From: an uncultured Gammaproteobacteria bacterium
GTDB lineage: Bacteria; Pseudomonadota; Gammaproteobacteria; CAVZZX01
NCBI GenBank assembly: GCA_963779865.1
Contig: CAVZZX010000003.1
Location: forward strand, 2,252,274-2,316,273
Length of the DNA stretch: 64,000 nucleotides
Direction: 5' to 3'
Shown here piece by piece: positions 6,518 through 30,730 of this stretch (positions are counted from its first letter, which is position 1; each line of letters opens with the position of its first letter). Position numbers and translations under genes: made by a program. Below the pieces are notes generated by a model, which made no database searches, had not been told where the DNA came from, and saw nothing but the letters and a program-made list of their open reading frames with translations.

Positions 6518-7984
6518 TCACTCCAGGCCGAGTTCGTTCCACAGGGCGTCCACCCGCGCCTTGACCGCCGCGCTCATGGCGATCGGGCGGCCCCACTCGC
6601 GGGTGGTCTCGCCCGGCCACTTGTTGGTGGCGTCGAAGCCGACCTTGGAGCCGAGGCCGGAGACCGGCGAGGCGAAGTCGAGATAGTCGATGGGGGTGTT
6701 CTCGACCAGGGTGATGTCGCGCGCCGGGTCCATGCGCGTGGTCATGGCCCAGATCACGTCCTGCCAGTCGCGCACGTTCACGTCGTCGTCGGTGACCACC
6801 ACGAACTTGGTGTACATGAACTGGCGCAGGAAGGACCAGACGCCGAACATCACCCGCTTGGCGTGGCCGGGGTACTGCTTTTTCATGCTCACCACGGCCA
6901 TGCGGTAGGAGCAACCCTCCGGCGGCAGGTAGAAGTCGACGATCTCGGGAAACTGCTTCTGCAGGATGGGCACGAAGACCTCGTTCAGCGCCACGCCCAG
7001 CACGGCCGGCTCGTCCGGCGGACGGCCCGTGTAGGTGCTGTGATAGATGGGCTTCGTGCGATGGGTGATGCGCTCGATGGTGAACACCGGGAAGCGCTCC
7101 ACCTCGTTATAGTAACCGGTGTGGTCGCCAAACGGGCCTTCCGGGGCCTCCTCGCCGGGGTGGATGAGGCCCTCCAGGACGATCTCCGCCGAGGCCGGCA
7201 CCTGCAGGTCCGAGCCCAGGCATTTGACCACCTCGGTCTTCGACCCGCGCAACAGACCGGCGAAGCCGTATTCGGACAGGGTGTCCGGCACCGGCGTCAC
7301 CGCACCCAGGATGGTGGCCGGATCGGCCCCCAGCGCCACCGCCACCGGGAAGGGCTCGCCCGGATGCGCCCGCTGCCAGTCGCGCAAGTCCAGCGCCCCC
7401 CCGCGGTGGGCCAGCCAGCGCATGATCACCTTGTTGCGGCCGATCACCTGCTGGCGGTAGATCCCCAGGTTTTGCCGTTCCTTCTCGGGGCCGCGCGTGA
7501 CCACCAGCGCCCAGGTGATGAGCGGGCCGGCATCCTCCGGCCAGCAGGTCTGGATCGGCAGGCGCCCGAGGTCGACCGCATCGGCCTCGATCACGTTTTC
7601 CTGGCAGGGCGCGGACTTCACCACCTTGGGCGCCATGTTCAGCACCTGCTTGAACACGGGCAGCTTGTCCCAGGCGTCGCGCATGCCCTTGGGGGGGTCG
7701 GGTTCCTTGAGGAAGGCGAGCAGGCGGCCCACCTCGCGCAGTGCCTCGACCGAGTCCTGGCCCATGCCCAGGGCGACGCGCTCAGGGGTGCCGAACAGGT
7801 TGCCGAGCACGGGGATGTCGTGCCCTTTGGGGTTCTCGAAGAGAATGGCCGGGCCGCCCGCACGCAGGGTGCGATCGCAGATCTCGGTCATCTCCAGATA
7901 GGGATCGACCTCGACACCGATGCGTTTGAGCTCGCCCTCGCGCTCCAGCTTGGCAATGAAATCGCGCAGGTCCTTGTACTTCAT
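6518..7984 (-). CDS. ubiD: UbiD-family decarboxylase (4-hydroxy-3-polyprenylbenzoate decarboxylase)
   Basis: The protein begins [22 protein letters not shown] and shows full-length UbiD similarity. The six-frame ORF starts 4 codons further upstream. Confidence 0.85.
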
Positions 7985-8064
7985 CGGTGCTCGCAATCCG
8001 CCACAGGGAGCAAAAGCCTATCAAATCGCGCCGCCGTTTACCTGCGCCCCCGGACTACCGCAGG

Positions 8065-8130
8065 CGCTGTGCACCCGTGCACGGACACTGATAGGATGAA
8101 TCGCAGCGCCCGCAGTCCGGCGCTGCGCGC
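8065..8130. promoter_or_regulatory. divergent ubiD / WYL-regulator promoter region with two inverted repeats; candidate operator sites
   Basis: GTGCACCCGTGCAC at about 8068-8081 is one inverted repeat. CGCAGCGCC-N9-GGCGCTGCG at about 8101-8127 is a second, immediately upstream of the WYL gene start at 8150. Confidence 0.25.
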
Positions 8131-8149
8131 AAGGAAAACCCAACAGGAA

Positions 8150-9151
8150 ATGAACCGCGCAGAACGCATCTACCGGCTCCATTCCCTGCTGCGGCCGGGC
8201 CGTCCGGTCCCGCTGAGTCGGATAATGGACCAACTCGGGGCCTCGCGCGCCACGGTGAAACGCGACATCGCCTACCTGCGCGACTTCATGGACGCCCCCA
8301 TCCATTACGATCGCGAGCGCAACGGCTACCGCTACGCCCCCGACGCGCCGGAGTTCGAGCTGCCGGGGCTGTGGTTCAATCAGAGCGAGCTCTATGCCCT
8401 GCTCGCCAGCGAACAGCTTCTCGAGGGGGTTCAGCCCGGCCTGCTCGGGCCGTATATCGGGCCGCTCAAGGCGCGCATCCGGCGGCTGCTCGCCGAGAGT
8501 GGGCATGCCGCCGACACCGTGAGCACGCGGGTCATCCTGCAGCCCTTCGCGCAGCGCCACGTCGACCAGGGCCTGTTCGGCCGTGTCTCCGAGGCGGTGA
8601 TGGCTCGGCAGGTCCTCGATATCGAGTACGAGGGCCGCGAGCGCGGGGCGCTCACCCGGCGCCGCATCCATCCCTATCGCCTCCTGCACTACCGCGACAA
8701 CTGGTATGTGGTCGGCTGGTGTGAACGGGCCGGCGACCTGCGCACCTTTTCGCTGGATCGTCTCCGCCACGCCGAATTGGTCGAGGGCGCCGCCACGCCC
8801 GCCGACGCAGCCGCCCTGACCCGCTATCTCGGTGCGAGCTTCGGCATTTTCACCGGCGAGGCCGGTGCCTGGGCCGTGCTGCGCTTCACCGCCCAGCGCG
8901 CCCGCTGGGTCGCCGACGAGCAGTGGCACCCCGACCAAATCGGCCAGTGGGTGGACGGCGCCTACGATCTCCAGGTCCCGTATTCCGATCCGCGCGAACT
9001 GTTACTCGACATCCTCAAGTACGGCCCCGATGTCGAAGTCCTCGCCCCCACCGAGCTCCGTGAGCTGGTGGCCGGGCGGATTCGGGAGGCCGCGGCACGC
9101 TACGAGCGCGAACAGTCCGCAGAAATTGACGCCGGGTGGCTCAATCTGTGA
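8150..9151 (+). CDS. YafY-family transcriptional regulator with HTH, WYL and WCX domains
   Basis: The protein begins MNRAERIYRLHSLLRPGRPVPLSRIMDQLGASRATVKRDIAYLRD with an N-terminal HTH. The central region contains the WYL motif (YRDNWYVVGWC), followed by a C-terminal extension. The six-frame ORF 6863..9151 is the same frame extended antisense across ubiD. Confidence 0.85.
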   Translation: MNRAERIYRLHSLLRPGRPVPLSRIMDQLGASRATVKRDIAYLRDFMDAPIHYDRERNGYRYAPDAPEFELPGLWFNQSELYALLASEQLLEGVQPGLLGPYIGPLKARIRRLLAESGHAADTVSTRVILQPFAQRHVDQGLFGRVSEAVMARQVLDIEYEGRERGALTRRRIHPYRLLHYRDNWYVVGWCERAGDLRTFSLDRLRHAELVEGAATPADAAALTRYLGASFGIFTGEAGAWAVLRFTAQRARWVADEQWHPDQIGQWVDGAYDLQVPYSDPRELLLDILKYGPDVEVLAPTELRELVAGRIREAAARYEREQSAEIDAGWLNL

Positions 9152-9178: not shown

Positions 9179-9752
9179 ATGCGGCCAAAGGAAACCATCT
9201 TGCCCCGCAAGGCGCCACAACCCGTATTCCAGCTGATGGTCACGCTTCAGCACCGCCAGCCGACCATCTGGCGGCGGATTCACGTGCCAGCCGATATCCG
9301 CCTGGGCGAGCTGCACGAGGTCTTGCAAGTGGTCATGGGCTGGGAAGACGCGCACTTGCATGCCTTCCGGAACGGCGGCACCGAGTGCGGCGAACCGGAC
9401 CCACAGTTCCCGGGCGGCATGCGCACCGAGCGCAACGATCCGCTGGGGCAGGTCGCGAGCGTCGGCGACACCTTCTGGTACGAGTACGACTTCGGCGACG
9501 GCTGGCTCCACGCCATCCGTGTGGAGCAGACGCTGCCCGGCGACACGCCTCACCCCCGCTGCGTCGGCGGAGAGCGCGCCGCCCCGCCCGAGGACTGCGG
9601 CGGCCCGCCCGGCTACGCCAGCGCTGCTGGAGACCATCGCCGATCCGCGGCATCCGGACCGCAAGGAGATGCTGGAATGGATAGGCGAGGAGTTCGACCC
9701 CGAGGCCTTCGACATCGAGGCGGTGAATCAGAAGTTGGAGGGAGTCGGGTAA
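9179..9752 (+). pseudogene. pRiA4b ORF-3-like family protein (PF07929-like), with a frameshift at about 9610-9625
   Basis: The N-terminal part WRRIHVPADIRLGELHEVLQVVMGWEDAHLHAF...EDCGGPPGY is in frame 2. The family's C-terminus LLETIADPRHPDRKEMLEWIGEEFDPEAFDIEAVN continues in frame 0. The implied 1-nt indel falls in a gcccgcccggc run. Confidence 0.55.
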
Positions 9753-9780
9753 GGATGCACCACTCGGGACAAACAGACCG

Positions 9781-10291
9781 ATGAAACTGGCGAGCTTCGA
9801 GGCGATTGCGCGCGCTTTGCAAAATGCCGGCGTCCGCTATCTGGTGGCAGGAGGTCTGGCGGTCAATGCGCATGGATTCCTCCGCTTCACGAAAGATGTG
9901 GATCTCGTCATGGATCTCGCCCCCGAGAACGTCCGGCGCGCGTTCGATGCATTGGCGAGCCTGGGCTACCGTCCGCGTGTACCGATCACCGCGGACGAGT
10001 TCGCCGACGCCGATATGCGCCAAACCTGGATACGGGAGAAGGGGATGCAAGTCCTCCAGCTTTGGAGCGACGAACTATCGGGAGACACCCATCGACATCT
10101 TCGTCGCGGAGCCGTTCCCCTTCGATCAAGAACACCAAAGATCGCTAATCAAGCCTCTGTATGGGACCGTCGAGGTGCGATTTGTATCGATACCCACCCT
10201 GATTCAAATGAAAGAGGCCGCCGGACGCGAACAAGACCGGATCGATATCGAGCATCTCCGCATGAGGCTGGACAAGAATGGAACCGATTGA
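9781..10291 (+). pseudogene. nucleotidyltransferase-fold protein (MNT/AbiEii-like), with a frameshift at about 10070
   Basis: The sequence LVAGGLAVNAHGFLRFTKDVDLVMD matches the NTase G[GS]...D.D motif. The N-terminal half is in the frame of the 9781 ORF. The C-terminal half (ETPIDIFVAEPFPFDQEHQ...IQMKEAAGREQDRIDIEHL) is in the frame of the 9806 ORF. Confidence 0.5.
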
Positions 10292-10535
10292 GAATTCGTC
10301 TGCGGATATCGACTGGAGCCTTACCACCTGGGAAGGCTCCCGCCAGGAACAGATGCGACGCTGGGCGGAATTGCCTTTGGAGCGGATTGTCGCGGCGTTA
10401 GAGGAAATGGAGGAATTGGCGGCCGCGCTTGGCGGTTGTGCGGGCGCAGCGCATGCGGTGCCTGTCGGACGATGGATTACGTTCGTCGCCGGGCCTGCGC
10501 GGGGGCAGGACGTTAGGAGCGCAGTGCATTACTAA
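10278..10535 (+). CDS. hypothetical small protein overlapping the nucleotidyltransferase 3' end (possible partner or remnant)
   Basis: This is an 85-codon ORF, MEPIENSSADIDWSLTTWEGSRQEQMRRWAELPLERIVAALEEMEEL. No recognisable motif was found, and its coding status is uncertain. Confidence 0.2.
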   Translation: MEPIENSSADIDWSLTTWEGSRQEQMRRWAELPLERIVAALEEMEELAAALGGCAGAAHAVPVGRWITFVAGPARGQDVRSAVHY

Positions 10536-10908
10536 CAGCACAACAAAACCGAGCCCAACCACGAAAGTAATTGGTGAATACATTTTCCACGGCGCGTGTT
10601 GCTCGAATGAGGAGAATCAATAGCCGGAGCCACATGGTGGGCCGACTCCCTCGTGAGGATGACTTGTTGGAAATGGTAGACCATGGGCTTCAGGACTGTT
10701 GTTTGGTGGTGAGCGAAGTGGCCGTCCATAATTCCCTACAGGGGTCCCCAGAAGTTCCCCTCCCCATCGAAGCAGGACCGCTGTCTTGCAAGTTGTTGTC
10801 TGAAGAGCAATCTCCGCGGCCCACGTGCCGCGGCCTCATTGAAAAGCGCAAGCATTCGGACCACGTGCCCGAATAGGAAGAACCACATCTGCAACCCAAG
10901 GAGTCGTC

Positions 10909-12234
10909 ATGGCCGGTTCACTTAATCTCGATACTCTGTCCGCCGCGGTCAGCGGCTCCGCTGCCGCATTTCGGTGTCGTCGCAGGCTTCAGCCCGCCGG
11001 CGGTGAGGGCGACAAGGTCTTTCCGCCTACGTTCGCCGGCGCGGTCTACGCCGTAGAACAGCGACGGCTCCCCGGGCACGAAGAGCCGGTTACCTGCGTG
11101 CTGCTCGACAGTGTCCAGAGCCAGGCCAACCGCATGGAGCTGGCCTTGCAGCAGGCCTTCGACGCTGGGCGGTTCCGGATGCCGCTGGTGGAGGTGGACT
11201 TCTCTGAGCGCGACCCGACCGGTGACGTCGAAGCCGATCTCGAAGCGGGCCGCCTCATCGATGCGGTGGGCAGGCTTACAAGTCTGCAGGTGCCGCATCG
11301 CCTGGCCGACGCCATCCTGCGCGACAGCGAACTCGACGGAACGCCCTTTCGTCAGTCCGAGATCGGCAAGGCGCTCAATACCGTCAATCTCGCCAACGCC
11401 ACCCCACTCTTCGAACTCTGTCCCACTGCGCTTCTGTTCGGCATGTGGGATTCCACCGGTCCAAAAGGAGGGCTGGGGCCGAAGTTTGAACGGGCGATGG
11501 TTTCGGAGATCACGGGTGTCGGAGTAGATTTCGGGGTCAAGACCCAAAGCCGTGTCGATCCACTCATCGCTAAGACCACCGGAATTACTTTGTACGAGAA
11601 GAAAGGTGGTGGATGGACTCTGAATGAGGGAGAGGCGCTCAAGAAGGATGGGAAACCGGTCAAGCTTGGAAAAGATGGAAAGGCCTCTGAGGCCAACCTC
11701 GGGAATGTCACTCCAGCTTTCCACAAGTACGCAAAAGGCGCTGAAGGGGTAGACCCATTGACAGGCGAACAAGCCCGTGAAGGGAAGATCGCTCCGGGTG
11801 GCGTCACCATCGAGCATGCCGCACAGGTCACCACGCTTTCGCTAATCGCGCTGCGCCGGCTGCACTTCCCGCTCGATGGGGTGACGAACCGCGAAGTGGA
11901 TGAAGCTGCCCGTACGGTCCTCGCCGCGCTGGGCCTCTGCAGCGCCACTCTAGCCTTCGAGACGGGCGTGGGTCTGCGTTCCCGCAGCCTGCTGTGGCCG
12001 GACGGGCCGATGACATGGGAACTGCTCGAACGCCCAGGCGCGCAACCGCGAGCGTTCGAGCTGACCGGCGAGCAGGCGGTGGCCCTGCTGGAGGATGCGA
12101 TCGACATGGCTCGGCGCGCCGGGCTGAACTGGCGCGAGGAGCCCATTGGGCTCAAGCCCTCCAGTCAGTTACTTGAGCTGGTGCGCCGCAGCCAGAACCT
12201 GGCGCGTCACGAAGGTGCAGAGGGGGGGGCATAG
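10909..12234 (+). CDS. csb1: type I-G (I-U) Cas7, Csb1 family
   Basis: The N-terminal block KVFPPTFAGAVYAVEQRR...VLLDSVQSQANRMELAL is typical of Csb1/GSU0053 proteins as I recall them. A glycine-rich loop is present (GMWDSTGPKGGLGPKF). An AAGGAG ribosome-binding site precedes the ATG. Confidence 0.75.
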   Translation: MAGSLNLDTLSAAVSGSAAAFRCRRRLQPAGGEGDKVFPPTFAGAVYAVEQRRLPGHEEPVTCVLLDSVQSQANRMELALQQAFDAGRFRMPLVEVDFSERDPTGDVEADLEAGRLIDAVGRLTSLQVPHRLADAILRDSELDGTPFRQSEIGKALNTVNLANATPLFELCPTALLFGMWDSTGPKGGLGPKFERAMVSEITGVGVDFGVKTQSRVDPLIAKTTGITLYEKKGGGWTLNEGEALKKDGKPVKLGKDGKASEANLGNVTPAFHKYAKGAEGVDPLTGEQAREGKIAPGGVTIEHAAQVTTLSLIALRRLHFPLDGVTNREVDEAARTVLAALGLCSATLAFETGVGLRSRSLLWPDGPMTWELLERPGAQPRAFELTGEQAVALLEDAIDMARRAGLNWREEPIGLKPSSQLLELVRRSQNLARHEGAEGGA

Positions 12235-12238
12235 CGCC

Positions 12239-13804
12239 GTGTTGGCCTTCGGTATTCGCTACCTGAACGGCTTCGCCGCAGCCGCCGAGCCCGACGACCG
12301 AGGTTGCGCGGAATGGCCGCCGCACCCAGGCCGGGTGTTCATGGCAATGGCTGCCGCGCACTTTCAGACCGGGGCCGAGCCCGCCGAACGGGCGGCCCTC
12401 CTCTGGCTGGAAGGTTCGGGACGCGGCGACGAGGTCGACGCACCGCACCTGGCGGCGCCGGAGGGAACGCTGCGAGCGGTAGTCACGCATTATGTGCCGG
12501 TCAACGACAAGGCGGGACCGTCCAAGGCCGTGCTGCATTCGCTGCCGCTGACTCGCGAGCGCCAGGAGCGTACCTTCGCCCGTGCCTGGCTCGACAGCGA
12601 TACGGTTTATCTCATTTGGCCCGAGTTGAATCCGCCTCCGGAACACCGCCGCGCTTTGGAGGCCTTGTGCGCCAAGGTCACCCGCGTAGGCCACTCCAGC
12701 TCCCTGGTGCAGATGTGGCTGGCGGACAGCGCGGAGACTTACGAGCCGAACTGGGTGCCGGACGACACGCGAGGGACCATCCGCTTGCGCATTGCCGGTC
12801 CGGGGACCCTGGAACACCTCGAACAGGAGTACAACGCGATGGCGATGGAGGATTACGCCACCCTCAGGGTCGAGGCGGAAACGGCGCCGACGCCGAAGGA
12901 GAGGACGGCAGCGAGGCGGCGGCTCAAGCGGGACTACGACAACAATCCTCCACGGCAACAGCGGCCGATCTTGTCGCTCTATCAAGGTTACGCGGCGGCC
13001 ACGACCCTGGCGAAAAACCCAGGCGTGCCCGGGACGATCTACAGCCCGCATTTCATCGCGCTCAAGCTGGTCCCCGAGCAGGGCCCGTATCGCGAACTCG
13101 ATCTCGCCGCCACGCATGCCATCGTATTGCGCTGGCGCGAGGCGATCCTCAGTCACAGCAATGGGGAACCAGACCGGGTACGCAGCATCCTGAGCGGCCA
13201 CGATCGCGAGGGTGCACCGCTCAAGGAACCGCACCTGGCCTTCCTCCCGCTGCCCTTCGTCGACCACGAGCACGCCGACGGCCATCTGCTCGGCATAGGC
13301 CTCGTCTTGCCGGCGACGATCGAGCGGGACGAGCGGCGCGCCATCCTGCGCGTGCTCGGCCAAGTCCAGCGCCTCAAGCTTGGGCGCCTCGGGCTATGGA
13401 AGCTCGTCCCGGTCACCGAATCCCGCCCACCCTGGAACCTGCGGCCGGAAACCTGGACGGCCTACACGGACGGCGCCACCCACTGGACGTCAGTGACCCC
13501 TGTTGCCCTCGACCGCCACCCGAAGGCAAAAGGCGAGGCGGCCTACCGGCAAGAGCTGGCCCGCATGATTTCCCAAAGTTGCGAGCGCATCGGTCTCCCC
13601 CCACCGCGCGATGTGATACCCACCTTCGTGTCGACCCACCTCGGCGCGCCCCCAGCCCACGCTTTTCCAAAGCTCATGCGCAAGGACGGCAGCGAACGGC
13701 GTCACACCCACGCCATTCTGATATTCGACGAACCGGTGTGCGGGCCGCTGCTGATTGGGGCGGGGCGGTTCCGCGGGTACGGAGCGTTCCGACCGCAACT
13801 CTGA
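12239..13804 (+). CDS. csb2: type I-G Cas5-Cas6 fusion, Csb2 family
   Basis: The N-terminus VLAFGIRYLNGF...EWPPHPGRVFMAMAAA resembles the Csb2 signature that I recall as EWPPSP.RLF. The GTG start lies 5 nt after the csb1 stop and is preceded by an AGGGGGG ribosome-binding site. Confidence 0.75.
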   Translation: MLAFGIRYLNGFAAAAEPDDRGCAEWPPHPGRVFMAMAAAHFQTGAEPAERAALLWLEGSGRGDEVDAPHLAAPEGTLRAVVTHYVPVNDKAGPSKAVLHSLPLTRERQERTFARAWLDSDTVYLIWPELNPPPEHRRALEALCAKVTRVGHSSSLVQMWLADSAETYEPNWVPDDTRGTIRLRIAGPGTLEHLEQEYNAMAMEDYATLRVEAETAPTPKERTAARRRLKRDYDNNPPRQQRPILSLYQGYAAATTLAKNPGVPGTIYSPHFIALKLVPEQGPYRELDLAATHAIVLRWREAILSHSNGEPDRVRSILSGHDREGAPLKEPHLAFLPLPFVDHEHADGHLLGIGLVLPATIERDERRAILRVLGQVQRLKLGRLGLWKLVPVTESRPPWNLRPETWTAYTDGATHWTSVTPVALDRHPKAKGEAAYRQELARMISQSCERIGLPPPRDVIPTFVSTHLGAPPAHAFPKLMRKDGSERRHTHAILIFDEPVCGPLLIGAGRFRGYGAFRPQL

Positions 13805-13857
13805 GGAGAATCAGGCATGCGTGAACGGGAGCTTAGCCTTAAGAATGGGGTGATCGA

Positions 13858-16800
13858 GTGGAGACTGCCCGCAATGACGGGTTCGAGAAGATAACCAGAG
13901 GATGGGGACAGGAGATGATTCCATTGCCTGATTTCTCTTTGTGGTTCCATGCACTCTGGGGCCACTCTCCGTTTCCCTGGCAGCGCATACTCGCCGAGCG
14001 ATTGGTCAAGGGCGAGTGGCCCAAGGCTCTGGACCTGCCTACCGCCGCGGGCAAGACAGCCTGCATCGATGTCGCCGTCTATGCGCTGGCGACCCAGGCG
14101 GAGAAGCCAGTGTGGGAGCGGACGGCACCACGGCGCATCTGGTTCGTGGTGGATCGGCGCATCGTAGTCGATGAGGCGTTTGCGCGCGCGGAGCAGATCG
14201 CGCAGAAGCTTGCGACGGCGACGGATGGTCCTCTCAGGGCTGTTGCCGAGCGGCTATTGCGGGTGAGCGGAACGACCCGACCGCTGGCCACGGCAAGACT
14301 GCGCGGCGGTGTGTTGCGCGACGACGGGTGGGCGCGGCTACCTTCGCAGCCAGCGGTGATCACCTCCACGGTGGATCAGCTCGGCGCCCGCCTGCTATTC
14401 CGCGGTTATGGCCACAGCCCGAACACCGCCTCCATCTTTGCAGGCTTGGCGGCGCACGATAGTCTGATTTTGTTGGATGAAGCCCACCTATCAGTGCCGT
14501 TCATGCAGACGCTGCGGGCGGTAGAGCGCTATCGGGGGCCGGAGTGGGCTGAAGAGCCGATCCGAACGCCATTCGCCTTTGCCCTGCTGTCGGCGACACC
14601 TCCGTCCGATAGTGTCCCCACCGAGGTGTTTCCTGGTATTCGGCGCGCCGAAGCCCTGAATCACCCGGCCTTGCGGCAGCGCATACAGGCGCGAAAGCCG
14701 GCCGACCTGGTCGAGGTCACGGGGAGAAAATCGGACCCTTCCGATCCACTGGTCGCGGAAGCCGTTGCGCGTGCCAGGATGTTCACTATTAAGGGACGGC
14801 GGCGCGTCGCCGTGGTCGTCAATCGGGTGGGCACAGCGCAGGCAATCGCTCACGGCCTTCGCGAGGCAATCGGCGGCGATATGGACGTCGTGCTCCTCAC
14901 CGGAAGGCTGCGGCCCCTGGAACGCGACACCCTGGTGGAGCGCTGGCGGCCTTTGCTGCGGGCTAATGCACCAGCGGAACCGGAGCGCCCGATTGTGTTG
15001 GTCGCGACCCAGTGTATCGAAGTTGGAGCGGACTTCAGCTTCGACGCGTTGGTGAGCGAGGCGGCGAGCCTGGATGCGCTGCGCCAGCGCTTTGGCCGGC
15101 TGAATCGGCTAGGCATGGAAGAGACCGCACTGGCGGCGATCCTGATCCGTGCCGCGGATGCTAAAGACGATTCCGACGATCCGGTATACGGCACAGCCAT
15201 GTCTGCCTGCTGGCGGCTACTGAGCGAATTGGCAGAGGCGGATGGAGTCGGCAAGCGGGGAGGCAAGCGCATCGATTTCGGCATCGCCGCCTTGGACAGC
15301 CTCTTGGAACCGCTCAACGATTTCAGCCCCTATTTGGCACCAGTCACGGTTGCTCCGCTGCTCTTGCCTGCGCACCTTGACCTACTGTGCCAGACCGCGC
15401 CGCCGCCTCCGATAGAACCCGCCATCTCACTGTACCTCCATGGCGTCGACCGCGGACAGCCGGAAGTCCGAGTTGTCTGGCGCGCAGATCTGAGTACCGC
15501 GAGTGCCGGGGACTGGGCAGAAATCGTCGCCCTCTGCCCACCCAACAGCATGGAGTCGTTGTCGGTACCACTTACCCGCCTCCGCGGCTGGCTGGCGAAC
15601 CACGGCGCCGGTCAAGAAACGGCGGATGTGGAAGGCGGGAGCTGGGAGGCGCCTCCGATGGCGCCGCAAGAATTCCGGCCGGTTCTCGCGTGGCGGGGAC
15701 GCGAGCGCTCGCGGGTCGTTATGCAAGCTTCCGAGTTGCGGCCGGATGATCTGGTCGTGCTGCCGACTGGATATGGAATTGAAGGGCTCGGCCAGAGCGT
15801 CCCCACGACGGCCCTAGGCGGGCATCAGCTTGACATCTGGGAGCCGAGTCATAGGCAGAGCGGAAAACCGGCCACGCTGCGATTGCACCGCGAAGTGTTG
15901 CAACCGTGGCGGGACTGCCCACCGCTCGCCGAACTTATCGCTTTGGCCGAGGATCCGGATTGGGAGAGCGAAGCACTACAGGTTGCCATCGATGCCGTAC
16001 TCGATTACGTACCAGGCACGGATGAGGATCCGCCACCGCCACCGCCACCGCAGTGGCTGACGGATATGCTCCGGCAGGCTCGCAGCGGAAGGGTAGAGAA
16101 GCACCCTGCAAACGGCCTGATATTGTTTGCGCCCTCCGACAGGAATCAGAACGGTGAGGAGCAAGACCTGTTCGCCGACGACGACGACCTGCTCTCTGCC
16201 ACCGGCCGCGAGGTCAGTCTCGGTGTTCACAGTGCGTCAGTGGAACGGGCGGTCGGGCAATTAGCCCAGCGCTGCCTGCCCGAGCCCTTTTTCGCACCGC
16301 TGCGAGCGGCGGCCTACTGGCATGATGTCGGCAAGCTGGACGAGCGCTTCCAGATGTGGCTGCGCGAGGGCAACGAACTCGAGGTGCTCGCCGGCGAACC
16401 CTTGGCCAAGTCGAGGGGCATCGCCACTTCCCCGGAGCGACGCCGCCGGCTGCGCGAGGCGAGCGGCCTGCCCGAGCGCTTCCGGCACGAGATGCTTTCG
16501 ATGCAACTGGCCGAACGATATGGCCCTGCGCCTCACGGTGAGGGGACGGACGTCCTTGTCCTGCACGCCATCGCCAGCCATCACGGCTATGCGCGACCGT
16601 TTGCACCGCCGAGTCCCGACCCGCTTCCACCGCCGGTCCGCGGGCGGCATGCCGGCGCGGAGATCGACATCGACATTACAACCCGCGCGGGATGGCCGGT
16701 ACCGGCATCGATAGCCGCCGGCATGGCGGAACGGTTTTGGCGTCTTACACGACGTCACGGTTGGTGGGGGCTAGCCTACCTCGAGGCGATTCTCCGTTTG

Positions 16801-18048
16801 GGAGACTGGTACGGCAGCCAGCGAATCGTGGAGGAAGCACCCGTGGAGGGTTCAGCACCTGCGAAAGGTCCCGTCCGTGCGAAGCGCCCAACGTTACCGG
16901 GGACAGAGGTCCCACTCACCGGAGTCGATGGCGCGAACCCGTTGGGTTTTCTGTGCGCGCTCGGTACGATGGTGGTGTTGCACGAGGCGGGGCACGGCGA
17001 TGCGCGACTCTTATGGCGGCGCGAGGGATTGACATGGCGCCCCCTGCTGACGGGCCTGCCCACCGGGGATAGATCGGCTTTGGCACAAACCATCGCTGAT
17101 GGTTTACGCGGTTCGATCGTTTCCGCCGAAACCGAGGCGGCACGCAAGGACGCACAAATGCGCTTGGGCGAGGTGGAGAAGAAGGTCAAAGAGGCGCAAA
17201 AGGATATCAAGCTGCGAAGATTGCGAGGCAAGGAGCGCCAGCAGGCGTACGCCGCGGAGATTTCGCCGCTAGAAGCCGAACGTAAGCTGCTGCAGCAGGA
17301 TTTTCTGCGGGCACTGCGCCAAGCCGTTCCCCGCCCTGAACTCGCGCTAGGCAAGAACATCGACGCCACAGCCGCTGAGTATCGAGCCCTCACCGAGCCG
17401 CATGTCAGCAATGCCCGCTATAACGATCGCGAGTGCCTGGACTTGCTTGCTGCTTTCGCCAGCGATGGCTGTCTGCATCGCAGTCCGACCAAGCGCAAAG
17501 AAGGGAAGCTGGCGCCCACGCCTTTTTCCTTCATATCCGGTTCGGGCCACCAGGACTTCCTCGAGACCGTACGAGGGCTTCTTCAGCGGGTGACGCCGGA
17601 ACTTGTCAGCTCCACCTTGTTTTCGCCATGGCGGTACGATGAAGAAGGGCTGTCCATGCGCTGGGACCCGGTCGAAGATAGACGCTACGCCTTGATGGAC
17701 CGCGACCCCACGGCGAGCGACAACAAGCCTCGCACAGTCTGGATGGCTAACCTGCTGGCGTACCGGGCGCTCGCATTGTTTCCCTCCGCGCCGGGGCGCA
17801 GACGCCTGCTCACCACCGGCTGGGCCCGCGATGCCACTGGGGAATCCTTTGTCTGGCCACTTTGGATACACCCGGCCGATCGGGACACCATCCGTTCGCT
17901 GCTGCTGCTGCCGGAGCTATATTCGCCTGCGCCGGATCGACAGGTCTTGCGCACAAGAGGCGTGGAAGCAGTCTTCCGTGCACGCCGCATAAAAGTCGGA
18001 AGCGGTGCGAACTTCAAGATCAATTTCAGTGCAGCTCGCGAGGTCTAG
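13858..18048 (+). CDS. cas3: Cas3 helicase-HD nuclease with a roughly 470-aa C-terminal extension; putative Cas3-Cas8u (Csx17-like) fusion
   Basis: The N-terminus FHALWGHSPFPWQ...LPTAAGKTACID provides Walker A and LILLDEAH provides the DEAH box. An HD domain (YWHDVGKLDERFQ...IASHHGYARP) lies at about residues 815-920. The C-terminal extension then opens with GVDGANPLGFLCALGTMVVL, which resembles the Csx17 N-terminal PLGSYLKALGVLRLV block. The ORF is uninterrupted. Confidence 0.8.
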   Translation: METARNDGFEKITRGWGQEMIPLPDFSLWFHALWGHSPFPWQRILAERLVKGEWPKALDLPTAAGKTACIDVAVYALATQAEKPVWERTAPRRIWFVVDRRIVVDEAFARAEQIAQKLATATDGPLRAVAERLLRVSGTTRPLATARLRGGVLRDDGWARLPSQPAVITSTVDQLGARLLFRGYGHSPNTASIFAGLAAHDSLILLDEAHLSVPFMQTLRAVERYRGPEWAEEPIRTPFAFALLSATPPSDSVPTEVFPGIRRAEALNHPALRQRIQARKPADLVEVTGRKSDPSDPLVAEAVARARMFTIKGRRRVAVVVNRVGTAQAIAHGLREAIGGDMDVVLLTGRLRPLERDTLVERWRPLLRANAPAEPERPIVLVATQCIEVGADFSFDALVSEAASLDALRQRFGRLNRLGMEETALAAILIRAADAKDDSDDPVYGTAMSACWRLLSELAEADGVGKRGGKRIDFGIAALDSLLEPLNDFSPYLAPVTVAPLLLPAHLDLLCQTAPPPPIEPAISLYLHGVDRGQPEVRVVWRADLSTASAGDWAEIVALCPPNSMESLSVPLTRLRGWLANHGAGQETADVEGGSWEAPPMAPQEFRPVLAWRGRERSRVVMQASELRPDDLVVLPTGYGIEGLGQSVPTTALGGHQLDIWEPSHRQSGKPATLRLHREVLQPWRDCPPLAELIALAEDPDWESEALQVAIDAVLDYVPGTDEDPPPPPPPQWLTDMLRQARSGRVEKHPANGLILFAPSDRNQNGEEQDLFADDDDLLSATGREVSLGVHSASVERAVGQLAQRCLPEPFFAPLRAAAYWHDVGKLDERFQMWLREGNELEVLAGEPLAKSRGIATSPERRRRLREASGLPERFRHEMLSMQLAERYGPAPHGEGTDVLVLHAIASHHGYARPFAPPSPDPLPPPVRGRHAGAEIDIDITTRAGWPVPASIAAGMAERFWRLTRRHGWWGLAYLEAILRLGDWYGSQRIVEEAPVEGSAPAKGPVRAKRPTLPGTEVPLTGVDGANPLGFLCALGTMVVLHEAGHGDARLLWRREGLTWRPLLTGLPTGDRSALAQTIADGLRGSIVSAETEAARKDAQMRLGEVEKKVKEAQKDIKLRRLRGKERQQAYAAEISPLEAERKLLQQDFLRALRQAVPRPELALGKNIDATAAEYRALTEPHVSNARYNDRECLDLLAAFASDGCLHRSPTKRKEGKLAPTPFSFISGSGHQDFLETVRGLLQRVTPELVSSTLFSPWRYDEEGLSMRWDPVEDRRYALMDRDPTASDNKPRTVWMANLLAYRALALFPSAPGRRRLLTTGWARDATGESFVWPLWIHPADRDTIRSLLLLPELYSPAPDRQVLRTRGVEAVFRARRIKVGSGANFKINFSAAREV

Positions 18049-18260
18049 CATTGCCGGTGGCTTGCAGGTGCTACGCGAATGTGGCGGCACGTATAGATAG
18101 GCGTTTGGCGCCTGAGCTCGGCCGTGTTGATCTAACAGCAGTACGCCGAGACAGGTTTATCGGGCACGCATTCTCGGCTCTTTAACAACTTGGAACCTTC
18201 TATTCCGCGGCTCTCCGGAGCCGCGGCCTCATTGCCGTCGGCACGCCCTAGCGACCGCTT

Positions 18261-18382
18261 CAGTCCATCCCCAACAGCACGCGCACCGAGCGCTCAATGG
18301 CGGCCATTTCGTCGGGCTCCAGGCAGGTCAGCGGCCCCTCGCCGAAGCGGGTGTGGTCCAGCGCGCGTATCCGATCGGTCAT
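18261..18382 (-). other. 41-codon ORF in the cas3 / cas4-cas1 intergenic gap; possible gene remnant
   Basis: The translation is MTDRIRALDHTRFGEGPLTCLEPDEMAAIERSVRVLLGMD*. No family was recognised. It sits in a 770-bp gap that is otherwise non-coding. Confidence 0.15.
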
Positions 18383-18821
18383 AACGTGGGAGTCCTTGCG
18401 CAGCCGAGCCTCGTGCGGCCGGGCGTACGCGCAGGGGCGCGATGGATTTTTGTAGTAGCGTGATCAGAGGTGCCACCAGCACACAGTGGGTACGCCCTGT
18501 GCGGTAATGTAGTCGCCTTGCCGCATCACCACCGGGTGGACTTTTCCGATCCCCGCGGCGGTATTCCGATTGAGCCACCAGCCGGGCTTCGCCGCGGCGC
18601 GTCAATCCCACCACTTCTCTTCCGGTCCGCCAACCTGCTCGGCGATGCATAGAGTGCACCGATCACTTGCGACGAACTCTTCCGCGTGGCACCCATGCGA
18701 CAAGCCGTAACGTATGACGGATTCAGAGTCTTACTTGCCGAGGGGCAAGCGGGCAACGCACGCCGCTAAATCCCCAGGCGCCGTGCACCAGAGGATTCAT
18801 TGGACGGTCGGGGGGACCTGT

Positions 18822-20528
18822 ATGGAGGACCAGCACCAGGGCGAACTGCCCTTACCCTTTCCGGAGCTTTCCGGCGATATGCCGTTGCTCCCGGCGCGCA
18901 TGCTCAACGAGTTCGCCTACTGTCCACGGCTGGCCTACCTGGAGTGGGTACAGGGGGAATGGGCGGATTCAGGGGACACGGTCGAGGGGCGGCATGTGCA
19001 CCGCCGGGTCGACCAGCCGTCCAAGGGCATGCCTTCTGCGGAGGACGCCACGGAGCGCTTCCATGCCCGGTCGATCACACTGTCCTCGAACCGGCTGGGG
19101 CTGATCGCGAAGATGGACCTTATCGAAGGCGACGGCGAGCGGGTCACGCCCGTGGACTACAAGCGGGGCAAACGCCCGCACGTCCCGAAGGGCGCCTACG
19201 AGCCCGAACGTGTGCAACTCTGCGTGCAGGGGCTGATCCTCCAGGAGCACGGCTACACCTGCGCCGAGGGTGTGCTCTACTTCGCCGCCTCGAAGGAGCG
19301 GGTGCGGGTGGTTTTCGACGAGGAGTTGCGGGAGCAGACGCTGGCGGCGGTCAACGGCCTGCGCTTCATCGCCGCCGGCGGGCAGATGCCGCCGCCGCTG
19401 GAAGACAGCCCGAAATGTCCGCGCTGCTCGCTGGTGGGGATCTGCCTGCCGGACGAGGTGAACTATTTCCGCAAGGGTCAGGACAGTCCCCGACCGCTCG
19501 CGGTCGGCCGCGAGGAGGCGATGCCGGTCTACGTGCAGGCCAATCGCGCCAAGGTCACCAAGAAGGGCGAGTTGCTCGAGGTCAGCATCGAAGACAAGCC
19601 CGTTACCACCGCCCGTTTAGCGGAGGTCTCGCAGCTCGCGCTGATGGGCAACGTCTATCTGACCACGCCCTGCCTGCACGAGCTCATGCGCCGCGATATC
19701 CCGGTGAGCTGGCATTCCTTCGGCGGCTGGTTCCTGGGGCACACCGTGGGCACCGGACACAAGAACGTCGAGCTGCGTACCGCGCAGTATCGGGCGAGCT
19801 TCGATCAGCGTGCCTGCCTGCATTTGGCCAAGGGGCTGGTGCAGACCAAGATCCTCAACAGCCGCACACTGCTTCGGCGCAACTGGCGCGGCGAGGACGA
19901 TCCGAAGGCGCTGCTTCAGGACATGCAGCGCGATGCCAGACAGGCGGCCCGTGCGGAGAGCCTCTCCGAGCTGCTTGGCATCGAAGGCGCGGCGGCGGCT
20001 CGCTATTTCGGCCGATTCGACCGACTAATAAAGAAGAACGCGGACACCGAAAGCTTCAGCTTCGACTTCAATCGACGCAACCGGCGCCCGCCGACCGATC
20101 CAGTCAACGCCCTGTTGTCCTACGCCTATACCATTCTGGTGCGGAGCTGGACCGTCGCCCTCTCCGCCGTGGGCTTCGATCCCTATCGCGGCTTTTACCA
20201 CCAGCCACGGTATGGGCGACCGGCACTGGCGCTGGATATGATGGAGCCGTTTCGCCCCTTGATCGCCGAATCGGCGGTGTTGTCCGCCATCAACAATGGC
20301 GAGGTCCGCCCTAGTGACTTCATCGCGGCCGCGGGCAGCGTGGCTCTGACCCCGGACGGCCGCAAGCGGTTCATTGCGGTTGTCGAACGCAGACTCAGTC
20401 AGGAAATCACGCATCCGCTGTTCGGATACAAGGCCAGCTATCGGCGTATTCTCGAGATACAGGCTCGGTTGCTCGGGCGGTATCTACTGGGGGATATACA
20501 GGACTTCCCGGGCTTTACGACGAGGTGA
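18822..20528 (+). CDS. cas4-cas1: Cas4-Cas1 fusion protein
   Basis: The N-terminal Cas4 part has an N-terminal Cys (CPRLAYLEW), a RecB-nuclease DxnExK block (DLIEGDGERVTPVDYKRGK) and a C-terminal CPRCSLVGIC Fe-S motif. The Cas1 part follows (YLTTPCLHELMRRDIPVSWHSFGGWF...). A GGGGGGA ribosome-binding site precedes the ATG at 18822. The six-frame ORF starts at 18714. Confidence 0.9.
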   Translation: MEDQHQGELPLPFPELSGDMPLLPARMLNEFAYCPRLAYLEWVQGEWADSGDTVEGRHVHRRVDQPSKGMPSAEDATERFHARSITLSSNRLGLIAKMDLIEGDGERVTPVDYKRGKRPHVPKGAYEPERVQLCVQGLILQEHGYTCAEGVLYFAASKERVRVVFDEELREQTLAAVNGLRFIAAGGQMPPPLEDSPKCPRCSLVGICLPDEVNYFRKGQDSPRPLAVGREEAMPVYVQANRAKVTKKGELLEVSIEDKPVTTARLAEVSQLALMGNVYLTTPCLHELMRRDIPVSWHSFGGWFLGHTVGTGHKNVELRTAQYRASFDQRACLHLAKGLVQTKILNSRTLLRRNWRGEDDPKALLQDMQRDARQAARAESLSELLGIEGAAAARYFGRFDRLIKKNADTESFSFDFNRRNRRPPTDPVNALLSYAYTILVRSWTVALSAVGFDPYRGFYHQPRYGRPALALDMMEPFRPLIAESAVLSAINNGEVRPSDFIAAAGSVALTPDGRKRFIAVVERRLSQEITHPLFGYKASYRRILEIQARLLGRYLLGDIQDFPGFTTR

Positions 20529-20531
20529 ATC

Positions 20532-20825
20532 GTGGACGAGCACCTGTACGTGGTCACCTACGACATCGCAGACCAGAAGCGCTGGAGGGCGGTCTTCAAG
20601 TTGATGCACGGCTACGGGGAATGGCTGCAGCTTTCCGTGTTTCAGTGCCGACTCAGCCGCAAGCGCCATGCCGAACTGCTCGCCACGCTTGACCAGATCA
20701 TCCATCACGACGAGGATCACATACTGATGCTGGACGTCGGCGCCGCCGAGAACGTCCGGCCAAGAGTCGTCAGTCTCGGAAAGGCAGGCTTCGAGCCCGT
20801 GGACCGCAAGCCGATAATCGTGTGA
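20532..20825 (+). CDS. cas2: Cas2
   Basis: The protein begins VDEHLYVVTYDIADQKRWRAVFKLMHGYGEWLQLSVFQC. It has a GTG start 4 nt after the cas4-cas1 stop. Confidence 0.9.
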   Translation: MDEHLYVVTYDIADQKRWRAVFKLMHGYGEWLQLSVFQCRLSRKRHAELLATLDQIIHHDEDHILMLDVGAAENVRPRVVSLGKAGFEPVDRKPIIV

Positions 20826-21029
20826 TTTTCGCCTTCGGCCTGCGAGCGCTCCGCTGCTGCCGCAATCCCGGGGAGCGCTCGCAGCACCGCAAGTGATTGG
20901 CGAAGCGGAAATTAATCCTCAAAGTGTTGCCCAAAACCTGGCGAAGGGAGGGAATGTGATGGCCTCGCAAGCACAGCGCTCGAAAAGGATGCCTCAAACG
21001 CGCCCCGCCACTGGTCTCCCGTGGAAGCG
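20826..21029 (+). promoter_or_regulatory. CRISPR leader
   Basis: A 204-bp non-coding stretch lies between cas2 and the first repeat and contains an AT-richer segment (gaaattaatcctcaaagtgttgcccaaaacc). The degenerate terminal repeat is at the distal end of the array, which is consistent with this orientation. Confidence 0.5.
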
Positions 21030-23123
21030 GTTATCCGCGGCATAACGCCGCGGCCTCATTGAAGCTTGACGATCTCGTTGCCCAGCTCGTAGAGGCTCTT
21101 GGTTATCCGCGGCATAACGCCGCGGCCTCATTGAAGCTCCGCCGGCAAGCTCGACGCCGAGGCCCTGCCGCTGGGTTATCCGCGGCATAACGCCGCGGCC
21201 TCATTGAAGCGTGATCTCGTTGTCGCGGGCCTGCCGGGTCAGCTGCGTTATCCGCGGCATAACGCCGCGGCCTCATTGAAGCGCATCGCTACTGGCGCGG
21301 CAATTGCCAAGGTCGCCGGCGGTTATCCGCGGCATAACGCCGCGGCCTCATTGAAGCGACGCGAAGCTCGCCGAACAGTGCGCAGCGCCAGCGTTATCCG
21401 CGGCATAACGCCGCGGCCTCATTGAAGCTCATCCTGCTCGGTGTGCTTCGCGGAATGTGCATCCATGTTATCCGCGGCATAACGCCGCGGCCTCATTGAA
21501 GCACCGAGGCTGCACGCACGACGACTGGCGCAGCCTGTGCGTTATCCGCGGCATAACGCCGCGGCCTCATTGAAGCCAACGGGTACACGACTGTCTGCAC
21601 TGAGCCTGTCAGTGTTATCCGCGGCATAACGCCGCGGCCTCATTGAAGCCGGACATTCAGCCGACCGCCGCAAGCCGATGTAGCGCGCGTTATCCGCGGC
21701 ATAACGCCGCGGCCTCATTGAAGCCATGTAGTTCGTCACGATCGGACGCTAATATTCTCACGCGTTATCCGCGGCATAACGCCGCGGCCTCATTGAAGCT
21801 TGTCGTGGTACGCACTCAGGTATTCCCTGGCTGTGGTTATCCGCGGCATAACGCCGCGGCCTCATTGAAGCCGAACCGGCGATCGGCTGGTACCCGGACC
21901 GCTTCTCGGTTATCCGCGGCATAACGCCGCGGCCTCATTGAAGCATGATCGTCCAGGTAATCGCGTCGTCGGAGATCGCCAGTTATCCGCGGCATAACGC
22001 CGCGGCCTCATTGAAGCTTCCGCTACTGGGACGATCCGTGCCAGCCGACGCAAGCGTTATCCGCGGCATAACGCCGCGGCCTCATTGAAGCCAGCAGCGT
22101 GTCAAGCGGCTTTGCGTCGATGGCGATGTTATCCGCGGCATAACGCCGCGGCCTCATTGAAGCGACGGTAGCTATCTCGACTACCACGACGCTCGCGGAC
22201 GTTATCCGCGGCATAACGCCGCGGCCTCATTGAAGCCGCATGCGGCATCGAGGAAGTCGTCGAACAGCGTTCCGGTTATCCGCGGCATAACGCCGCGGCC
22301 TCATTGAAGCGTCGGTACAATGACCGAGTCGCCTAACTAGTAGCGCTCATGTTATCCGCGGCATAACGCCGCGGCCTCATTGAAGCGACGCCTCCGGCGC
22401 CGAGACTTTGCTCGATCAAGGGTTATCCGCGGCATAACGCCGCGGCCTCATTGAAGCGCACGAGATACGCGGTCCTCGACTGTCCCGACGCGGACGTTAT
22501 CCGCGGCATAACGCCGCGGCCTCATTGAAGCGAGCTCCGGATCCGCTCGCACTCGCGCGTCGCGCGACTGTGGTTATCCGCGGCATAACGCCGCGGCCTC
22601 ATTGAAGCACTCCCTTGGCGATTGATCAGGCGCATGTCGCTACGTCACCAGGTTATCCGCGGCATAACGCCGCGGCCTCATTGAAGCATCGCCGAGCGCT
22701 TGAGCAGCGCCACCCTGCCCTTGGTTATCCGCGGCATAACGCCGCGGCCTCATTGAAGCTCCCATTTCACGTAAGCGGGGACATCACCCGTGTACGTGTT
22801 ATCCGCGGCATAACGCCGCGGCCTCATTGAAGCTTGTGTTGTCACTTCTCTGCCTTTCTTTTCGGCCGGCGTTATCCGCGGCATAACGCCGCGGCCTCAT
22901 TGAAGCATGAGCACCAGCGCATCGCCGGAGGCGGCATCCGCGTTATCCGCGGCATAACGCCGCGGCCTCATTGAAGCGCCAGCTATCGTAGCTACCTTGC
23001 GGGCAATGCGGCCGTTATCCGCGGCATAACGCCGCGGCCTCATTGAAGCACCCCGGAGCAGGACGGGCTGCACCAGAACTGGATACGTTATCCGCGGCAT
23101 ATTCGCCGCGGCCTCATTGAGGC
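21030..23123 (+). CRISPR. CRISPR array of 29 repeats of 36 bp (GTTATCCGCGGCATAACGCCGCGGCCTCATTGAAGC) and 28 spacers of 35-39 bp; the terminal repeat is degenerate
   Basis: Repeat starts were read at 21030, 21102, 21175, 21247, 21322, 21394, 21467, 21541, 21614, 21689, 21764, 21836, 21909, 21982, 22056, 22128, 22201, 22275, 22351, 22422, 22496, 22573, 22652, 22724, 22798, 22871, 22942, 23014 and 23087. The last repeat reads gttatccgcggcatattcgccgcggcctcattgaggc. Each repeat contains the palindrome CCGCGGC-ATAAC-GCCGCGG. The ATTGAAGC tail resembles I-C/I-G repeats. Confidence 0.97.
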
Positions 23124-23349
23124 GTTTATACCGAAGCGGGGGGCATGGGGCGAACCGGTCGAGGCGGCTTTAGGCAGTAAGCGGCAGCGGGCGCAATTCC
23201 CGTTTGCGAGCGACCCTTCATCGCGCGCCGCCCCGCGGGCGTAGCGGGCAACCGGAATAGCACCGCGTCATGCAGGCCGCTTCTGGATCATGCGCCGCGC
23301 GCGCGCTGGAGTGAACCCGCGGGGGAGAGTGCGACCCGGCGGCCGGCGA

Positions 23350-30544
<7,195 letters not shown>

Positions 30545-30730
30545 AGCGGGCTTCCCTAAGGTTTTTAAATGGGGTCGGCCTCGCGAATCTACGGGAGGCC
30601 GGCGCGGAAGAAAAGCCGAATGCACTGAAAACACGAGGGATCTGCCCGGAAATACGGGCGCGTCCGGAGCTGCATCAGGGTTATCCCTTAGGGGTTTTCC
30701 CGGGGACGTGCAGGGACACGGCCGCGGCCC

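Follow-up and report, generated by a model that had tools for sequence, protein, structure and literature searches.

A Cas3g nuclease-helicase probably fused to a short Cas8g-like large subunit in a gammaproteobacterial type I-G CRISPR-Cas locus

The 64-kb window analysed here (64,000 nucleotides of contig CAVZZX010000003.1, from an uncultured gammaproteobacterium) carries a complete type I-G CRISPR-Cas locus, in which cas3 is part of one uninterrupted frame of 1396 codons (open reading frame, ORF, 13858-18048 on the plus strand). This ORF is likely to be a genuine natural fusion, in which Cas3g (residues ~20-987) is followed by a flexible linker of ~30 residues and by a domain of ~380 residues, of the family NF049934, that would act as a tethered large subunit. 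The fold of the domain, the position of its gene and the lack of any other candidate all point to this role in Cascade, and it is the sole candidate large subunit in this I-G variant.

The first-pass annotation had described an uninterrupted Cas3 ORF of 1396 residues with a Csx17-like motif in its tail. The single open frame was confirmed, and the motif, VDGANPLGFLCALGTMVVL (VDGANPLGFL...), starts at residue 1023. The boundaries had to be moved: the end of the HD domain and of Cas3 had been placed near residue ~920, leaving an extension of ~470 residues, but the model TIGR02621 (cas3_GSU0051) matched the ORF at 696.5 bits over protein residues 25-987, corresponding to model positions 1-853 of 854. 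The Pfam families Cas3-like_C_2 and Cas3_HD also matched this portion, with the helicase core (residues 200-424) preceding Cas3_HD (797-919). The extension is thus ~409 residues long, made of the ~30-residue linker and the ~380-residue domain. The exact 1396-residue protein is absent from a collection of 15 billion proteins, where its fused relatives are labelled just 'Cas3'.

The extension is a clear member of NF049934 (adjac_Cas3_IG), scoring 230.7 bits within the whole ORF and 237.1 bits as an isolated tail, for a cut-off of 65. The full name of the family is 'type I-G CRISPR-associated protein, Cas3-extension family'; no Pfam family matched the extension. A database search with residues 988-1396 returned 769 relatives, the best of which are mostly stand-alone proteins of 375-385 residues with 50-64% identity. 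In the closest ones (P0002, P0004, P0005, P0091, P0098 and P0117), the domain is preceded by the C-terminal part of the Cas3 HD domain and a variable linker. An exhaustive profile search gave 2069 cluster representatives, which are either ~380 or ~305-325 residues long, and nine full-length fused representatives (1311-1466 residues) were found in the best 150. The window domain belongs to the ~380-residue size class, of which a hairpin insertion of ~65 residues is typical; this insertion is not in the 299-position NF049934 model. The shorter class does not have this central segment and matches the profile in two stretches.

The structure of the tail was predicted with AlphaFold from a 35-sequence alignment (mean predicted local distance difference test score, pLDDT, 79.7; predicted template modelling score 0.80). 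The model shows a mixed α/β body preceded by ~24 residues, the linker, of largely low confidence; linker pLDDT values are mostly below 50 (model residues 1-13 and 21-24), with block means of 44, 49 and 61. The two helices of the hairpin (model residues 103-132 and 137-168) have pLDDT values above 90, and the C-terminal third is β-rich. When the model was compared with the PDB by Foldseek, the best match, and the only one at E ≤ 0.001, was chain M of 8b2x (E 2.6e-5), the Csx17/Cas8g subunit of a type I-G Cascade. Csx17 and Cas8a, both of them large subunits of Cascades, gave the best fold matches, well over background.

Chain 8b2x_M was retrieved by sequence too. A 96-sequence family profile run against 177,635 distinct PDB sequences hit it alone at E ≤ 10 (E 0.15), in a collinear alignment. 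This contains an N-terminal block (Csx17 residues 7-48, ...PTPLAAYLKALGVLRLV...) and a PLWERPASLPELRVLL block (the PLWERP/WPIW segments), and it falls on PLAAYLKALGVLRLV, the N-terminal block that the first-pass annotation had given for Csx17. We also built a Csx17 alignment from 25 full-length genes recovered from metagenomic loci. Against these, hhalign gave the family a probability of 68% (P 4.7e-5) over the N-terminal 64 columns, and with relaxed settings positions 1-318 of the family aligned to 11-399 of the 737 positions of Csx17. From the fold match and an alignment confined to this region, we take the extension to be a short Cas8g-like large subunit, the counterpart of the N-terminal half of Csx17. 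It has the N-terminal mixed α/β large-subunit domain of Csx17/Cas8g1 (Thioalkalivibrio sulfidiphilus Cascade, 8b2x chain M, TIGR04113) and is about half the size of that protein. The earlier suggestion of a shortened large subunit agrees with this result, and the proposed Csx17 likeness was supported at that N-terminal block and by profile comparison, if not as membership of TIGR04113. A protein database search with concatenated 8b2x_M fragments retrieved truncated Csx17 N-termini alone. Three such metagenomic sequences (P0271-P0273) have a charged, probably helical insertion after PWNG (e.g., ...RLRARAKRLKDASKSLKGEEKRRNEAE...) that we likened to the hairpin of the ~380-residue class. Searches of PDB sequences with the Csb1 of the window returned nothing, and a first, shallow family profile returned noise alone.

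The C-terminal α-helical, Cas11-like bundle of Csx17 (~300 residues, at ~400-737) is absent from the extension, both in the model and in the alignment. The proposal that the last ~130 residues form a Cas11-like small subunit was rejected because of the secondary structure and of how far the alignment reaches: these residues are β-rich and part of the same fold, not a helical bundle.

Several points weigh against a Cas8g-like large subunit made as part of a single polypeptide. The ORF had no NCBIfam match to TIGR04113 (Csx17) or TIGR04106 (Cas8g2) at E ≤ 0.1, and the Csx17 hidden Markov model (HMM) built here misses it at E ≤ 10. Sequence-level support is weak but specific, and comes from profile-profile comparison and structure prediction. 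Moreover, 8b2x_M is itself an AlphaFold model placed in ~8 Å density (PMC9638904), so that the fold comparison is one of model versus model. Nothing Cas11-like is present in the domain to fill the 'belly' of Cascade, no published experiment on any NF049934 member was found, and the linker of the window has a GTG with a good Shine-Dalgarno-like site, discussed below.

Some of these points would also suit another role for the extension, that of a module accessory to Cas3 (one that clamps DNA or regulates the enzyme, for example) and not of a Cascade subunit, so that the locus would encode an I-G variant free of a large subunit like I-F2. The neutral NCBI name, 'Cas3-extension' and not Cas8, fits this role, as do the constant association of the domain with cas3g (fused or abutting), the missing Cas11-like part and the lack of HMM-level similarity to Cas8 families. 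Cascades free of a large subunit exist, type I-F2 being an example (PMC12956352). We nevertheless consider an accessory module unlikely. It accounts less well for the fold matches to Csx17 and Cas8a, and for the gene order described below, where Csx17 takes the same place directly after cas3g and where each cas3g of a tandem locus has just one of the three families (Csx17, Cas8g2 or NF049934) encoded behind it. In addition, Cas3 binding to the I-G Cascade needs Cas8g (PMC9638904), and a variant without Cas8 would need a new recruitment route.

The genomic context of the family was analysed in a sample of 80 species-representative genomes encoding NF049934. In all 80 loci, the domain is encoded directly after cas3g. 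The usual order is csb1-csb2-cas3g-X-cas4/1-cas2, X being the NF049934 domain, and this is also the order in the window; cas3g-X-csb1-csb2 was found in four loci. Similarly, among 80 Csx17-type metagenomic loci, csx17 comes directly after cas3g in all those whose contig includes the upstream gene (~70). None of the 80 has a Csx17 fused to Cas3g, in contrast to the extension described here. Several tandem loci have two I-G sets, and each cas3g is then followed by its own Csx17, Cas8g2 or NF049934 gene. Adjacent sets with different large-subunit families, NF049934 beside Csx17 or Cas8g2, were seen in L005, L019, L027, L034, L037, L040 and L058. On a short contig (L117:2-1678), the C-terminus of an NF049934 gene is followed 300 nt on by a Csx17 gene.

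Cas8g2 (TIGR04106, cas8c_GSU0052; cas8u2 of Geobacter sulfurreducens) is a protein of ~282 residues whose gene likewise lies directly after cas3g, as on a Cereibacter plasmid. The first-pass annotation had taken a ~700-residue Csx17 as the Geobacter type, but GSU0052 belongs to this 282-residue family. Cas8g2 has a faintly similar N-terminal D.aNP....a.LG motif, and its gene order (cas3g-cas8g2-csb1-csb2) is unlike that of the window. The comparison of NF049934 with Cas8g2 by hhalign, using single sequences and a small Cas8g2 alignment, was not significant (probability 1-6%), nor was that with an Actinomyces 'Csb3-like' sequence. On an Actinomyces oris plasmid (L087:10771-12282), cas3g is succeeded, in this order, by genes for a 303-residue hypothetical protein without family match and a 191-residue protein annotated as Cas6e-like, and by cas7g and csb2; this layout may be the Bifidobacterium 'Csb3' type. 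In three loci (L079:11802-14744, L080:11966-14812 and L081:9907-11994), the csb2 frame is 695-980 residues long, compared with ~500-550 in the variant of the window. These long frames belong to the order cas3g-(NF049934 or Cas8g2)-csb1-csb2 and suggest an extra domain on Csb2.

No other large subunit is encoded nearby, as had been proposed from the first pass. Indeed, no Csx17 or Cas8g2 homologue was found among the six-frame ORFs of at least 50 residues in the 64-kb window (hmmsearch with the Csx17 HMM, phmmer with Cas8g2, E ≤ 10), and the ORFs flanking the cas genes gave no matches to cas large-subunit families.

Covalent fusion is the minority state of the family. X is a separate frame in 65/80 loci, its first aligned residue lying a median of 17 nt past the cas3g stop, so that the two genes abut or overlap. 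The other 15, among them those of two cultured organisms, Ectothiorhodospira mobilis DSM 237 and Natronospira elongata, have cas3g and X within a single stop-to-stop frame. In this comparison with related I-G loci, which the first-pass annotation had called for, the extension is usually a separate gene. The linkers of the fused relatives are 30-40 residues long, in frame and unrelated in sequence. In a rough neighbour-joining tree, fused and split forms are intermingled, the fused ones making up at least four or five separate groups, and the window clusters with L001-L005, which are all fused, and L041. These five closest relatives come from Chromatiales, Wenzhouxiangella, Ectothiorhodospira mobilis DSM 237 and two Acidobacteriota. 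The fusion therefore appears to have arisen repeatedly, and a sequencing or assembly artefact is unlikely because fused relatives exist in several separate lineages.

It could still be asked whether the fusion is only apparent, either because a stop or a frameshift was lost by error or recent mutation, or because a free Cas8-like protein is also made from a start in the linker. In the split relatives, the two genes are separated by a mere overlapping stop and start, and one base change would interconvert the two states. The linker of the window also contains GGAGG, 8 nt and, in frame, a GTG at 16843, which as read from the sequence could serve as an internal start, though not a conserved one. 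Internal initiation within large-subunit genes is known in types I-B, I-C and I-D (bioRxiv 10.1101/2020.04.18.045682). In the same study, McBride et al. reported no internal start in Cas8u2. We regard an apparent fusion as very improbable. L001-L005 are fused through linkers of similar length and different sequence, and the independent metagenomic sequences P0002, P0004, P0005, P0091, P0098 and P0117 are fused too. A scan of the linkers of the 15 fused relatives revealed no conserved internal start: in 13 of them no start codon is accompanied by a Shine-Dalgarno-like site, and only L001 has a site comparable to that of the window. Conserved internal initiation in the linker was rejected on this basis. 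The internally initiated Cas11 suggested in the first pass fails with it, the extension having neither a C-terminal helical domain nor a conserved linker start.

With the fused protein taken as a natural Cas3g-large-subunit polypeptide, a working scheme for the effector can be proposed. Csb2 would cut the precursor CRISPR RNA and remain on the 3′ hairpin, while Csb1/Cas7g would polymerise along the guide. The Cas8-like domain would dock at the 5′ end, where the first Cas7 subunits lie, and take part in recognition of the protospacer-adjacent motif and the target. Because it is covalently attached, Cas3g would be delivered in cis, loading on the displaced strand after the R-loop forms. In the Thioalkalivibrio I-G system, Cas3 co-purifies with target-free Cascade only if Cas8g is present (Shangguan et al., PMC9638904), and the fusion would hard-wire what is already, in that system, a constitutive association dependent on Cas8g.

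Comparable arrangements exist in other subtypes. In type I-E, Cas3-Cse1 (Cas3-Cas8e) fusions, both natural and engineered, follow the same principle, the nuclease-helicase being covalently joined to the large subunit that recruits it, and an engineered E. coli Cas3-Cse1 fusion enters Cascade and confers immunity (PMC3890593; PMC6547450). These are proteins of another subtype, whose families are not detectably homologous to those discussed here. Moreover, the reversed domain order of Cas3g (helicase, then HD) places the end of the HD domain next to the large subunit, unlike in I-E. The type I-A Cascade with integral Cas3 (PDB 7r2k and related entries) differs in that the association is non-covalent and Cas11, Cas5 and Cas6 are separate. 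A bolder proposal is that fused Cas3g-Cas8-like protein, Csb1 and Csb2 make up by themselves a full type I interference machine of three proteins. The conserved ~65-residue hairpin of the ~380-residue class would then replace the Cas11-like half in its role at the belly or the non-target strand, and repeated independent fusion, in at least four lineages, would reflect selection for obligatory cis delivery of Cas3. We put this forward only tentatively and would not bet on it; if true, it would describe a compact, pre-assembled Cascade-Cas3 with an activation logic unlike that of systems recruiting Cas3 in trans.

The novelty implied by the first-pass annotation was overstated, as NF049934 is curated and named for this very arrangement, and the literature probably lists the same gene as cas8u1. 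Of the two layouts described for type I-G in myxobacteria, one is csb1-csb2-cas3-cas8u1 (PMC11237760), and a table for Thermus strains lists cas7, csb2gr5, cas3 and cas8U1 (PMC5529391). The equivalence with the cas8u1 of these two descriptions is probable because the gene after cas3 on Thermus thermophilus JL-18 pTTJL1802 is a divergent NF049934 member (59 bits, under the cut-off). Another stand-alone member was found on a Streptomyces avidinii plasmid (258 bits). On Rhodothermus marinus pRMAR01, ~1 kb spanning the record origin is left without annotation, at the position expected for such a gene. Several large-subunit variants in these systems were noted already by Makarova et al. (2011) (PMC3150331), and a literature search found no paper describing an I-G fusion.

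The other components of the locus (Table 1) are those of type I-G: csb2 with csb1/cas7g, a helicase-then-HD Cas3g, a Cas4-Cas1 fusion, cas2 and an array whose repeat ends in ATTGAAGC. This ...TTGAAGC tail is the I-G repeat type of PMC11237760. The true start of csb2 is probably near 12240, and the 762-residue ORF 6863-9151, which contains the regulator domains, is probably an over-extended frame. WYL homologues were present upstream of csb1 in 9/80 related loci. Between the regulator and csb1 lie two plus-strand ORFs, one PRiA4_ORF3-like (9179-9784, E 7e-47) and one weakly nucleotidyltransferase-like (9781-10401), of which no counterparts were seen in related loci; ORF 10571-10876 had no family match. 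A large-subunit gene hidden among these upstream ORFs was rejected on the basis of these assignments. Downstream of the fused gene, ~670 nt (18049-18713) without a convincing ORF separate it from cas4/cas1; this gap is not conserved in relatives, some of which have abutting genes there. The G+C content of the cas locus (~10000-24000) is 0.60-0.66, compared with 0.68-0.72 in the flanks, which is consistent with horizontal acquisition. Finally, a 1779-residue multi-PAS hybrid histidine kinase/response regulator, unrelated to the fusion, is encoded downstream of the array (25295-30634, minus strand).

Table 1. Positions in the window of the type I-G locus components and of the parts of the fused gene (aa, amino acid residues)
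Feature	Position	Strand	Basis or description
HTH-WYL-WCX regulator (CasR-like), upstream of the cas operon	8177..9151	+	Pfam HTH_11, WYL and WCX at aa 439-744 of ORF 6863-9151
csb1/cas7g (Cascade backbone)	10909..12234	+	TIGR02570 and PF09617, 185 bits
csb2 (Cas5-Cas6 fusion, type I-G signature)	12146..13804	+	TIGR02165, 282 bits, protein residues 33-550
Cas3g portion, aa 1-987	13858..16818	+	Superfamily 2 helicase, then C-terminal HD nuclease; ends ...LGDWYGSQRI
Linker, aa 988-1017 (~30 aa)	16819..16908	+	Pro/Ala/Arg/Glu-rich, unconserved in alignment
GGAGG, 8 nt, in-frame GTG (codon 996; 16843) in linker, possible start	16830..16845	+	Sequence
Probable Cas8g-like short large-subunit domain, aa 1018-1396 and stop	16909..18048	+	NF049934 'Cas3-extension family'
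Predicted two-helix hairpin (coiled-coil) insertion in this domain, aa ~1090-1155	17125..17322	+	AlphaFold2 model
cas4g/cas1g fusion	18714..20528	+	NF049935, 832 bits, residues 58-604
cas2	20532..20825	+	TIGR01573 and PF09827
CRISPR array, ~28 copies of GTTATCCGCGGCATAACGCCGCGGCCTCATTGAAGC, 36-nt repeat	~21029..23052	+	Tandem Repeats Finder, period ~73

Among the type I subtypes, I-G is the least characterised, and only its Csx17 variant has been reconstituted. The fusion is an example of a known, widespread and curated family, with a precedent in type I-E, and is no new kind of system; its main value is to draw attention to an uncharacterised compact I-G variant, seen here through its sequence and a predicted structure. 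The computed evidence suggests that the neutrally named NCBI 'Cas3-extension family' is a truncated Cas8g homologue. In the loci compared, every cas3g is succeeded by one, and only one, of three alternative large-subunit families. This pattern, with the short family fused in about one fifth of species, fits the constitutive, Cas8g-dependent presence of Cas3 published for the I-G effector. The fusion also points to natural three-gene interference modules (csb1, csb2 and cas3-cas8) that could serve as compact tools for long-range deletions; Ectothiorhodospira mobilis DSM 237 and Natronospira elongata are among the cultured sources.

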